A DNA stretch of 58,761 nucleotides, filler included, from Ionaspis alba (lineage: Eukaryota): the NCBI GenBank assembly GCA_964255285.1. It is 4 parts of 4 records of this genome, joined end to end, with 100 filler letters (N's around TTAATTAATTAA, not from the genome) between each part and the next. Parts side by side here need not be neighbours in the genome. Positions count along the whole stretch, not along the records: positions 14,728 to 29,346 come from CAXUUL010000410.1; 3 more parts are not named here. One strand, given 5' to 3'. Positions 2,577 through 41,265 of this stretch are shown here, one piece after another. The translations under genes and the position numbers were made by a program. The stretch's first letter is position 1. Each line of letters starts with the position of its first letter. The notes under the pieces are model-generated. The model made no database searches, was not told the origin of the DNA, and worked only from the letters and a program-made list of their open reading frames with translations.

Positions 2577-4282
2577 ATGGGATTTACTGCAGGACAGATC
2601 TTGTACTATGCAATGCATATGCAGGAGCTGAGAGCCATAATACAATGGTATGCATTCCTTGAAGCTGCTCGAAGAAGATCGTCTCATAGAACATCTAGGA
2701 AAACATGGCATGAGCCTGTTCACACACGAGAGCCTGAGAAGGAGCCCAAGTCACTACAAATATGTTTCGACTTCCTAGACAAGACGAGTCGAAGCTTCAA
2801 CGCTGTCATCCAAGAGCTTCATCCCGAACTACTCGTTCCCGTCGCTTTGTTCTACTTGGTTCTGAGGGGCTTGGACACAATCGAAGATGACATGTCGATT
2901 CCCATCCACATGAAAGAACCACTGCTGAGGGACTTCCATACCATACTCGAGAAAGAAGGTTGGAATTTCGAGGGCAACGGTCCTGACGAGAAAGATCGTG
3001 ATCTACTGGTGCAGTTCAACTATGTTACCGAGGAGTTCAGGAAGATCAAGCCGGCATATCGCACAATCATTAAGGACATCACAAAAGAAATGGGCAATGG
3101 TATGGCAGACTATGCCAATAATGCGGAGCACAACGTCAACGGTGTCAACACTGTTAAAGACTACGATCTGTACTGTCATTACGTCGCTGGACTGGTCGGG
3201 CACGGGCTCACTCGATTGTTTGTGGAGAGCAAGCTTGCAAACCCTGCCCTCCTCGACCGCCCACACCTCTCGGAGTCCATGGGACTCTTCCTACAGAAGA
3301 CGAACATCATTCGGGACATCCGTGAGGACTTCGAGGACAAGCGGAGATTCTGGCCAAAAGAGATCTGGTCCAAGCATGTTGACAAGTTCGAGGAGCTCTT
3401 CGAACCAAAGAACCTCGACAAGGCTCTCAACTGTAGCTCGGAGATGGTTCTAGATGCTCTGCGACACGCGGACGAATGTCTCTTCTACCTTGCAGGTCTG
3501 AAAGAGCAGAGCGTCTTCAACTTCGCTGCGATACCTCAATCTATGGCGATCGCCACACTTGAACTGGTCTTCCGGAATCCGAAGATCTTCAAGCAGAACG
3601 TGAAGATTACGAAAGGTCAGGCCTGTCAGGCTATGCTCAAGTCGACTCAGAACCTTGAGTCGGTGTGCGAAGTATTCAAGCAGTTCACGCAGAAGATTCT
3701 CAAGAAAAACACCCCTCGCGATCCCAACTTCCTTAAGATCAGCATCGCCTGTACAAAGGTACGATAAACTCATTTCCCCCTCCAATGAATGGGATGCTAA
3801 CCAGAGACCAGGTCGAGAGGTTCATTGAATCCATCTACCCATCAGAAAAGTCCAAGGAGTTGGCACTCCGAAATCAACAGCAGCAGCAGCAGGCGCCTGT
3901 ACCTGCGCCTGTGAACGAAAAGACAGCCAAGCAGCTACAAGACGCGAAGGAGGCTAAACAGGATCTTAGTGCGTATATCATTCTCTCCGTTCACATGACG
4001 AAACTTCTAACCATTTCTCCTAGTCTACATGCTCCTGGCCGTGATGGGAGTTCTTTTCTTGTTATCGGCCTTGATGGTAAGTGCGTCGACTCTACATGGT
4101 AGCGAGGCTAATGCTTTTGCACATAGATTGGTATTGCGCATCTAATGGGTGCTCGAATCGACGTCGCCGTCAGCGAACTTGCAAAAGGGCATCTAGGACG
4201 ACCAAATCCCATCCAGGCGAAGGAGATCATCAAAAGCTTCGACCAAGCAAAGAAACACACTTCCGTACGCGGAGAGCTCTAA
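2577..4282 (+). CDS. ERG9: Squalene synthase (farnesyl-diphosphate farnesyltransferase)
   Basis: Motifs [38 protein letters not shown] and [13 protein letters not shown]. Introns at about 2648-2698, 3759-3811 and two more near 3970-4023 and 4077-4126. The C-terminal exons encode a hydrophobic anchor and end ...SVRGEL* (TAA 4280-4282). Confidence 0.95.
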
Positions 4283-21874: not shown

Positions 21875-22786
21875 TCACGAACCGCCCAATCTCCTCTCAA
21901 TCTTCTCCCGCTCACCAGCCCTTAATTCCCTCAGCTCTTCTTTGGTAGTATCATAACCCGCCGTGACCTGATTGAACGGATTCTCCTCACTCTTCTCAAA
22001 CTCCTTTCTGATCAGCTCGATGCGCTGCTGCCTTCTGAGACCCTTATGCTCCTCCTCTAGCTCCGGCAACCGTCGAGCCTCAAATGCAGCATAAGCCGCC
22101 TTGAATCTCCGCTCCGGATGCTTGTCGACCTTCTCGTTATTCGCGCCCGAGGTCAGGGATAGGGCGTCGAGCGCGTTTTCGATGCCAGAGGCATTGAGAG
22201 CCGCAGGTTTTGCGGAAGGAGTGTCGTCGTCAAGCGCGGAGAGGTCGAGACCTCGAGAGGGTTTCTTAGGAGCTTTCGGGTTTGCCTTTGCTTTGGAGGG
22301 CAGGGATGCCTCTTCGGCAGCAAGTAGTGCGTCCTTTTCGGCTTTCTTCCGAGCCGCTTCAGCTTTGCGTGCTTCGGCGTCCTCTCTGCAAGTGGCTTGA
22401 TTAGCTGGACGCCCTAGGTGTCCTATGTAGATATATGCAGTAGGAGTTTCATAGCTCGCGGGTTCTTATGTCCAAATGAAGGCGATATGTTCAACGTCGC
22501 TGTAGAGTGGGAGTGCACATTTGGCAGAAGACATGAGAGTTGGGGTAGGGACACCCACTTCTTAGCATTCGATTTGGCACCTTTGCTCCAATCGTTGTCC
22601 TCGGCGGCGGCTTTCTTCAATGCTTCGGCTTCCGACTTCTGTCGAGCTGATTCGGCTTTCTGAAAGGGGGAAACTGAAGTCAGTAGTAACGCTACAAGGT
22701 CAGAGGACAGCGAAAAAGGCGGAAGGGCGTACTTTCGCATTGCCAGCAGCTTTCTTGCTATTCTCTCCAGCTTGCTTTTTAGGCAT
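21875..22786 (-). CDS. CCDC124/Oxs1/Lso2-like (DUF1014) coiled-coil protein
   Basis: MPKKQAGENSKKAAGNARK, W.KGAKSNAKK, ASGIENALDAL, DKHPERRFKAAY and FEKSEENPFNQ. Two introns; the second is 22386-22558. Confidence 0.85.
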
Positions 22787-22965
22787 GGTGACCTTTCTGC
22801 AGATTGCAAAGGAACAATACGAGCGCGGATCGTATTACAACGAGACTGATGCTCTTGATGGCAATGTTTAGGAGGTTTCCAAGCGCGTTTTACGATGCTT
22901 GAGTATTCTTACTCTAATTCAAAGCTAACGAATGACGATGCATGTGCGGGCACCTCGGCCACAAA

Positions 22966-23065
22966 NNNNNNNNNNNNNNNNNNNNNNNNNNNNNNNNNNN
23001 NNNNNNNNNNNNNNNNNNNNNNNNNNNNNNNNNNNNNNNNNNNNNNNNNNNNNNNNNNNNNNNNN
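22966..23065. other. Assembly gap (100 N)
   Basis: Run of N that probably hides the NMT1 promoter and upstream 5' splice site. Confidence 0.95.
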
Positions 23066-23114
23066 CGCAATGGATCCTTCTATGTATCGAGGTAATGTTA
23101 CGGAGAAAAATAAT

Positions 23115-23261
23115 GCATGACGGGTGTTCATCCGCTGCTCGACTCGATTATGCTCTCGTGTCTTGATTGACAAGAGACATAATGGGGTTGATGTATGCTG
23201 GCTGTTCTGAGATTATACCGTACATGAACTTGATCTAGATAATTCTAGCGAAAGGACATGC
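23115..23261 (+). ncRNA. TPP (thiamine pyrophosphate) riboswitch aptamer in the NMT1 5'-UTR intron
   Basis: P1 GCATG 23115-23119 / CATGC 23257-23261; P2 ACGG 23120-23123 / CCGT 23218-23221; conserved CTGAGA 23207-23212; ACTTGAT; P5 CTAGA-TAAT-TCTAG 23235-23248; GCGAAAGG. Lies directly upstream of a THI5-family CDS. Confidence 0.95.
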
Positions 23262-23343
23262 TTCTCTTCTCCTCTCCTTTCCCCTCTGATTCTAAGAATG
23301 GCCAACTCACTGCTCGCAGTACTTGGACGCTCGAATTCCCATC

Positions 23344-24529
23344 ATGACTACGGATAAGATTACCTTCCTCACCAACTGGTAGGGTCAATTGAGAACACAA
23401 GGGCGAGTATCAGCTAAAACAAACTCAAAGGCATGCAACGCCATACCATGCGCCTCTTTACGTGGCCCAAGCCAAAGGGTACTTCAAAGAGCAGGGCATC
23501 AAGGTCGCTATTCTGGAACCCAATGACCCCTCTGATGTTACGGAGATCATTGGCAGCGGGAAGGTTGATATGGGCTTCAAGGCTATGATCCATACTCTTG
23601 CCGTTGGTAGTGGTCTTCCTTCTTGCCATTCTTTAGGCTGAGAACAAGTTTAGGCCAAAGCTCGCAACTTCCCCATCCTTTCGATTGGATCACTCCTCGA
23701 TGAACCGTTCACAGGGGTCGTCTACCTCAAGGACAGCGGTATTACGACCGATTTCCGCTCATTGAAGGGCAAGAGAATTGGCTATGTTGGCGAATTTGGA
23801 AAGGTACGTGCCTCAACAGCCATTCTGTCTGTTTCCTCGCTGATCTTTGCATAGATTCAACTCGATGAGCTCACCAAACACTACGGCATGACCACTGATG
23901 ACTACACTGCCGTTCGCTGCGGCATGAATGTCTCCAAGGCAATTATCAATCTTGAGATCGATGCTGGGATCGGCTTGGAGAACGTTCAGATGGTCGAGCT
24001 CGAAGAATGGCTTACAAGCCAATCTCGCCCCAAGTCGGATGTCCAAATGCTGCGCATCGATGAACTGGCCGAGCTTGGATGCTGTTGCTTCTGCTCTATC
24101 CTCTACATTGGCAACGAGAGTTTCATCTTCGAGAATCCTGAGAAGGTGGCCAAATTCATGAAGGCCGTGAAGAAAGCCACCGACTACGTCCTGGCCAACC
24201 CTGTTGAGGCCTACAAGGAGTACATCGACGTCAAGCCCATCATGGCGACACCAGTCAACCAGAAGATCTATGAGCGCTCCTATGCCTACTTCAGCAAGGA
24301 TTTGAAGAACGTTCAGCGCGACTGGACCAAAGTCACCAATTACGGCAAGCGTCTTGGCGTCTTAGATGCCATGTTCACCCCAAATTACACCAACGAGTTC
24401 CTCGACTGGGAGCTTGAAGGTGATTCCGCTGATCCTACTTTGGACCAGAAGAGAATGATTGAGCTTCAGAAGGAAGTCGCCGAGAAGGGAGGCTTCCAGC
24501 GACTTAGGATTGCTTCCGTGAATGCCTAG
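23344..24529 (+). CDS. NMT1: HMP-P synthase (thiamine pyrimidine synthase, NMT1/THI5)
   Basis: [28 protein letters not shown] (PLP Lys and substrate His) and GCCCFCS. Introns 23379-23430, 23603-23653 and 23804-23854. Confidence 0.96.
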
Positions 24530-41165: not shown

Positions 41166-41265
41166 NNNNNNNNNNNNNNNNNNNNNNNNNNNNNNNNNNN
41201 NNNNNNNNNNNNNNNNNNNNNNNNNNNNNNNNNNNNNNNNNNNNNNNNNNNNNNNNNNNNNNNNN
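41166..41265. other. Assembly gap (100 N)
   Basis: Run of N; the SSADH N-terminus is missing. Confidence 0.95.

Follow-up and report, generated by a model that had tools for sequence, protein, structure and literature searches.

TPP Riboswitches of Fungal Thiamine Genes

The riboswitch of the Neurospora crassa NMT1 gene ('Type I') controls alternative splicing. In the absence of TPP the proximal 5′ splice site is masked, its flank being base-paired to nucleotides of P4-P5; when TPP is present splicing takes the proximal site, and upstream open reading frames (uORFs) stay in the product and preclude translation of the main ORF (PMC3597705, PMC5882874; these papers and PMC11683625 are cited throughout from excerpts). 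The mechanism is traced to an original 2007 study cited in both papers, and the alternative-splicing precedent that an earlier note on the present DNA had invoked agrees with the excerpts of the two (PMC3597705, PMC5882874). Partial deletion of P3 had little effect in Neurospora (PMC3597705). THI4-linked riboswitches use the same masking of a 5′ splice site (PMC3597705), while the aptamer of N. crassa NCU01977 ('Type II') occupies an internal intron of 650-900 nt in a transporter gene and works by long-distance base pairing (alpha/alpha′, some 500 nt away) in which P1 takes part (PMC3597705). Long and variable P3 stems are known in fungal TPP aptamers (PMC5882874, PMC11683625), and where P3 exceeds about 60 nt in fungi the general Rfam model RF00059 often misses the aptamer or returns an incomplete match ending inside P3, being outperformed by fungal-specific models (PMC11683625).

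The window, the whole stretch of 58,761 nt analysed here, very probably contains a further member of this group, a long-P3 TPP riboswitch in the 5′-leader intron of a fungal NMT1/THI5 gene, most likely working in the manner of Neurospora 'Type I'. Like the N. crassa NMT1 riboswitch it combines an NMT1/THI5 gene, an aptamer in the predicted 5′-leader intron and a long, sequence-variable P3 with a putative proximal donor whose flank is complementary to P4/P5 and a uORF that would be kept on proximal use; unlike it, the window shows no distal donor, which probably lies in an assembly gap, and its putative masking helix is short. With the THI element of RF00059 it shares the three-way junction, the CUGAGA pyrimidine-sensor junction and the P4-P5 pyrophosphate-sensor arm, but where the model has a short hairpin its P3 measures 82 nt. 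The P4/P5 core is common to the fungal THI4-linked riboswitches, which were found by the same search pattern and differ in their target gene and in P1/P2 (CAUGA-RCCG.../...CGGY-UCAUG, compensatory changes relative to the window). NCU01977 likewise has an intronic TPP aptamer steering the choice among 5′ splice sites, but is without P4/P5 masking of the proximal donor.

No new principle is involved, since many fungi are already known to carry long-P3 NMT1 TPP riboswitches and the mechanism was established in Neurospora, and no departure from the published NMT1 class was found here; the locus may already stand in the species or locus supplementary tables of PMC5882874 and PMC11683625. The value for annotation is that the riboswitch accounts for the leader intron, the uORF and a likely repression of this NMT1 gene by thiamine.

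The Aptamer and Its Predicted Fold

The aptamer comprises the following parts.

23115-23261, plus strand: TPP aptamer (RF00059 match, RNA folding, alignment of relatives, covariance model R1)
23115-23119 with 23257-23261, plus strand: P1 (GCATG at 23115, CATGC at 23257)
23120-23123 with 23218-23221, plus strand: P2 (ACGGG at 23120, ACCGT at 23217)
23126-23207, plus strand: P3, an extended hairpin of about 30 bp, 82 nt (folding)
23148-23182, plus strand: distal hairpin within P3 (folding)
23208-23212, plus strand: J3/2 UGAGA (CTGAGA begins at 23207)
23229-23231 with 23252-23254, plus strand: P4 (fold and model R1)
23235-23238 with 23245-23248, plus strand: P5 (CTAGA at 23235, TCTAG at 23244)
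23240-23243, plus strand: P5 loop UAAU (TAAT at 23240)
23248-23250, plus strand: GCG (GCGAAAGG begins at 23248)

By sequence and predicted fold the interval is confirmed as a complete TPP aptamer. Beside P1, P2, P3, CUGAGA, P4 and P5 the set is completed by GCGAAAGGA, and the parts form a three-way junction in which P1 closes the P2-P3 arm and the P4-P5 arm, all 17 of the 17 modelled pairs being standard. The CUGAGA at 23207 aligns to the CUGAGA of the RF00059 consensus (J3/2), and the P4-P5 arm at 23226-23256 (UGAUC, the UAAU loop and GCG.A.GGA) fits that consensus with high posterior probability. In the crystal-structure literature the CUGAGA of J3/2 is the pyrimidine-sensing junction. The same role is given to J3/2 in PMC5882874. 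The motifs on which the earlier note had based its reading (GTAATG at 23092, P1, P2, CTGAGA, P4/P5, TAAT, GCGAAAGG, ACTCAC and the CAG ending at 23319) all lie where it had placed them.

Folding of 23115-23261 without constraints recovered P2, P3, P4 and P5 in the minimum free energy (MFE) structure at -49.2 kcal/mol, as against -47.1 kcal/mol for the fold with canonical P1, the difference lying in CAUG 23223-23226 of J2/4, which takes 23257-23260 in place of P1. This CAUG is self-complementary with the 3′ strand of P1 (23257-23260) and could compete with the 5′ strand of P1 for it; the CAUG is also present in L093, the closest of the relatives described below, and is absent from most others.

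P3 (23127-23206) folds as a single long hairpin of -33.3 kcal/mol with a z score of -5.1, and none of 300 shuffled sequences was equally stable. The P3 expansion put forward in the earlier note is therefore a real hairpin, with its distal arms TTATG and CATAA paired (23148-23152 with 23178-23182), but the tip in the RNAfold structure runs one step off the proposed TCTTG/CAAGA register. A similar qualification applies to P5, which had been described as a fully paired CUAGA/UCUAG: the letters are there, but the fifth pair, A23239-U23244, is standard in only 13 of 50 distinct related aptamers and is a feature of the lineage, not of the core.

The Downstream Gene and Its Neighbourhood

The aptamer ends 83 nt upstream of the main ATG of the gene that follows, the borders of whose exons were read from the frames of the DNA and from GT..AG sites.

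23344-24529, plus strand: NMT1/THI5 (HMP-P synthase of thiamine synthesis), 343 codons, stop TAG
23344-23378, 23431-23602, 23654-23803 and 23855-24529, plus strand: exons 1 to 4 of NMT1/THI5 (frames, GT..AG sites)

Judged by its sequence matches the gene is NMT1/THI5, Pfam family PF09084 being found on exons 2, 3 and 4 (E 7.5e-21, 9.2e-12 and 1.2e-30) and exon 4 matching the yeast THI5 and THI13 structures (4h6d, E 6e-84).

Contigs from one sequencing run (X1) hold two versions of 23781-23909, at depths of 47.8 and 59.9, with six differences, four in intron 3 (23811, 23815, 23832 and 23836) and two in exon 4 (23861 and 23879), as would be expected of two alleles or nuclei, or of a sample containing two strains. 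A second run (X2), labelled as a different organism, covers parts of exon 4 only, with no differences listed. On the minus strand, a divergent gene at 21875-22787 starts near 22787 with MPKKQAGENSKK and is lysine- and glutamate-rich and coiled-coil-like; the intergenic region between it and NMT1, which includes the gap, would be common to both.

Family-Model Scores and the Long P3

At its default (gathering) threshold RF00059 returned no TPP match anywhere in the whole window. The check with this model that the earlier note had proposed is thus answered in two parts: permissive thresholds do give a match, but at 38.4 bits it stays below the gathering cut-off of 54.3 bits, an operational threshold and not a structural feature. 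The match is partial (23172-23273), with E values of 3.2e-6 on 335 nt and 5.5e-4 on the whole window, where it was the sole TPP match; its alignment stops inside P3 and improvises P1/P2 out of the hairpin's 3′ strand, with several non-standard pairs.

An Rfam scan of relatives covering 18 loci indicated that such a score is typical for the class, as none of nine NMT1-linked relatives passed the cut-off; seven scored 34.2-51.9 bits and two had no RF00059 match at E≤0.01. All seven short-P3 aptamers passed, at 55.5-76.4 bits. P3 was a single long hairpin of 64-115 nt in 15 of 15 NMT1 loci (z -3.2 to -7.6), without conservation of its sequence across these loci, and its distal part has diverged even in L093. 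The aptamer is accordingly missed by standard RNA-family scans solely because of its unusually long P3, a further case in which the default Rfam cut-off overlooks fungal TPP riboswitches, here with all nine orthologous aptamers below it.

Conservation Among Metagenomic Relatives

A search pattern derived from the 3′ half of the aptamer, with the inner P5 pairs left free, retrieved 104 loci in metagenome contigs, and a match to NMT1 exon 4 was found on the same strand 607-1059 nt downstream of 15 loci on 13 contigs. As NMT1-linked relatives 14 loci were used, 12 with the exon-4 match together with L093 and L006, whose contigs are too short for exon 4 and which were linked through an NMT1 start (ATGTC.AC.GA.AAGAT) downstream. 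L093 is the closest relative, its 3′ half being letter-identical to the window over 23207-23261 and its donor the same GTAATG. The pattern also retrieved a THI4-type class of aptamers, and all five loci tested lie upstream of a Thi4-family gene.

A first P1 finder, which demanded GGG after P1, failed on the THI4-type aptamers, gave some chance solutions and was replaced. With about 3x10^4 combinations tried at each locus, chance alone should yield isolated 9-bp solutions, and recurrent motifs were therefore relied on (GCATGACGGGTG, CATGA-RCCGGTG and AGCA-KCCGGGTG).

Covariance model R1, for which 22 metagenomic relatives but not the window were used, gave one match in the 58.7-kb window, exactly 23115-23261, at 104.9 bits (rough E 1.2e-33), a score that is in part high by construction because the relatives were fetched by the window's own 3′-half pattern, so that the 3′ half of R1, unlike its 5′ half, resembles the window from the outset. 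In the R1 alignment of the aptamer, outer P1 and P2 included, every modelled pair is standard.

Alignment A1 holds 52 aptamers (50 distinct), 15 from NMT1 loci and 37 others with a P1/P2-finder score of at least 9.6, the remaining P1/P2-finder contexts being left out, so that pairing of P1 and P2 was itself the criterion by which rows were selected. Over the 50 distinct rows 90.4% of the cells pair against 74.3% in shuffles, a figure that leans towards structure in P1 and P2 through this selection, and in P4 and the outer P5 pairs is fixed by the search pattern, which makes their conservation a matter of construction. The covariation score was 0.375 against 0.125, and 0 of 500 shuffles, which ignore relatedness, reached 0.375. 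Changes on both sides were seen at 11 of 18 pairs, and slid registers pair in only 26-52%. The two inner P5 pairs, which the pattern left unconstrained, were standard in 90 of 90 distinct contexts, in six combinations.

On two of the retrieved contigs (L001/L002 and L036/L037) two TPP aptamers stand on opposite strands about 1.3-1.5 kb apart, one of them upstream of NMT1. In L037 the second aptamer lies upstream of a Thi4-family gene, a divergent arrangement of two thiamine-branch genes that both have a riboswitch of their own. On L024 a 5S rRNA gene (4085-4204, minus strand, 85 bits) was found about 1.5 kb from the NMT1 riboswitch.

The 5′ Leader: Predicted Splice Sites, uORF and Putative Masking Helix

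Between the assembly gap and the main ATG the leader carries the features below.

22966-23065, no strand: assembly gap of 100 N, ending 26 nt upstream of the donor at 23092
23070-23091, plus strand: uORF start, ATG 23070 with an in-frame ATG at 23082 (frames)
23086-23097, plus strand: predicted proximal 5′ splice site S2, AUCGAG|GUAAUG (conserved motif, GTAATG at 23092)
23262-23319, plus strand: 3′ part of the intron, with a pyrimidine-rich tract, a branch-like ACUCAC at 23305-23310 (A 23309) and an acceptor CAG to 23319 (heuristic)

The NMT1 relatives have a common layout, in which S1, one or more upstream ATGs, S2, the aptamer, a pyrimidine tract, a branch-like CTNAY, AG and the main ATG follow one another. 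All 15 NMT1 loci carry the S2 motif [A/G/T]TC[A/G]AG|GTAA in the same position, the aptamer begins 15-24 nt beyond it in the relatives, and in each of the 15 a branch-like CTNAY is predicted heuristically at the corresponding position, 9-17 nt before AG. The window and seven of the eight class-A relatives have an upstream ATG 21-22 nt before S2; in L071 the distance is 30 nt. In L019, L025, L043 and L075 the conserved GATCAAG|GTAAC, and not a second GGTA, was taken as S2; the predicted 3′ splice site directly at the ATG of these four is probably wrong, and their uORF ends were not counted. The claim of a TPP riboswitch upstream of NMT1 is thus upheld by the PF09084 and 4h6d matches, by the TPP architecture and by a layout conserved in 14 relatives.

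All 13 relatives whose sequence reaches far enough have a distal donor S1 (GTATGT or GTACGN) 57-71 nt before S2, a count that excludes L047, which ends too early, and the window, which has the gap. In L093 S1 reads acg|GTACGC, 59 nt before an S2 whose GTAATG is that of the window. By the spacing in the relatives, the S1 of the window is probably hidden inside the gap at about 23021-23035, and part of the expression platform would thus be concealed there. The gap at 22966-23065 is a true assembly break, since a contig of run X1 (length 745, equal to the aligned length) stops precisely at 23066. The earlier note's choice of GTAATG at 23092 as the intron donor can accordingly be kept in part: the site is donor-like and conserved, but it would be the proximal, repressive S2, with the productive S1 elsewhere.

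Splicing from S2 to 23320 would give a uORF of 19 codons from ATG 23070, out of frame with and overlapping the main ATG and ending at TAA 23355-23357; six of the eight class-A relatives show the same overlap of the S2-spliced uORF with the main ATG. In the unspliced leader the same uORF stops at TGA 23118-23120.

The exon side of S2, AUCGAG 23086-23091, is complementary to CUUGAU 23229-23234 (P4 and the P4/P5 bulge), and the register of this complementarity between S2 and P4 is conserved in 15 of 15 loci. The putative mask of the window, with 6 bp, one of them a G-U, and -5.8 kcal/mol, is shorter than in most relatives (7-10 bp), and alone it is not above chance, as pairing with P4/P5 at least as good is reached by 24% of neighbouring 17-mers. 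A longer interrupted duplex (23071-23098 with 23222-23247) reaches -14.5 kcal/mol, a value that 121 shuffles in 1000 and 8% of natural 35-mers also attain. Variation between A and G at two places of S2 preserves pairing to U, a variation with which ordinary exon-end preferences agree equally well. The energy of the S2 mask was rejected as stand-alone evidence in the window, not being significant against local 17-mers, shuffles or natural 35-mers. With the energetics at chance level, support for masking rests on positional homology.

Proposed Switch and Alternative Explanations

The switch that we infer, with TPP binding, the actual use of the splice sites and the position of S1 all deduced by analogy with the Neurospora gene and the relatives, would work as follows. 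Without TPP, CUUGAU 23229-23234 in the 5′ strand of P4/P5 would pair with AUCGAG|GU 23086-23093 and hide S2, so that splicing would run from the distal S1, probably in the gap, to the acceptor at 23319, removing the uORF and giving a translatable NMT1 mRNA. With TPP bound, P4/P5 would be held in the aptamer and S2 left free; splicing from S2 to 23319 would then keep the uORF of ATG 23070, which runs across the main ATG out of frame, and translation of NMT1 would be blocked.

Taken literally, the alignment reported by cmscan describes a compact aptamer at 23172-23273, in which the 3′ strand of the hairpin (ACAUA AUGG) serves as P1/P2 and the upstream GCAUGACGGG lies outside, and relatives give similar partial matches ending inside P3. 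Such an arrangement is extremely unlikely, given the several non-standard pairs that it requires in P1, P2 and P3, the fully standard outer P1/P2 in the alignment to R1 and a distal P3 sequence that is not conserved even in L093. The outer GCAUGACGGGUG, moreover, is conserved and covaries with its partners across classes, the 5′ arm GCATGACGGGTGTTC being identical to that of L003, L020 and L033, short-P3 aptamers that pass the RF00059 cut-off at 59.5-61.1 bits, and incomplete matches of this sort are a known artefact of RF00059 on long P3 stems (PMC11683625). That the locus is a decayed, non-functional relic or a chance resemblance, as the sub-threshold Rfam score might suggest, is almost certainly wrong: the core motifs are all intact, P1, P2, P4 and P5 consist of standard pairs throughout, and the aptamer occupies an orthologous position upstream of an intact NMT1 gene. 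The identity of 23207-23261 with L093, while P3 has diverged, points to selection on the core.

The remaining alternatives accept the aptamer and concern what it does. A real TPP-binding aptamer might exert another kind of control, with S2 as the sole donor and the intron either removed or retained, or might act through the branch site or acceptor, translation or stability. In favour of this are the gap where S1 should be visible, the weak mask of the window, a retained intron that also carries a uORF (ATG 23070 to TGA 23118-23120) and the several fungal modes of splicing control that have been described (PMC5882874, PMC3597705). It is nonetheless unlikely in view of the conserved order and spacing of S1, upstream ATG and S2, with S1 in every one of the 13 relatives that could show it, including L093, whose aptamer core is letter-identical and whose S1 precedes a GTAATG S2; as sole donor, S2 would also put an overlapping uORF into every spliced mRNA. 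The unusually short mask of 6 bp and the J2/4 CAUG that replaces P1 in the MFE fold have suggested that the platform could be a variant within the NMT1 class, whose function may differ from the Neurospora type. This is very unlikely; if true, regulation would run through competition for P1 (J2/4 CAUG for CAUGC 23257-23261) more than through the short mask, or alternatively through the interrupted duplex of 23071-23098, which takes in most of the uORF start codon, with 23222-23247.

Other Features of the Window

Paired runs of 44 N with 12 bases between them occur at 14628-14671/14684-14727, 29347-29390/29403-29446 and 44056-44099/44112-44155, which is odd for ordinary scaffold gaps, and a second run of 100 N lies at 41166-41265. 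On the minus strand, 6715-6832 matches the H/ACA snoRNA snR85 (RF01240) at 40.1 bits against a cut-off of 37 (E 4.2e-4).
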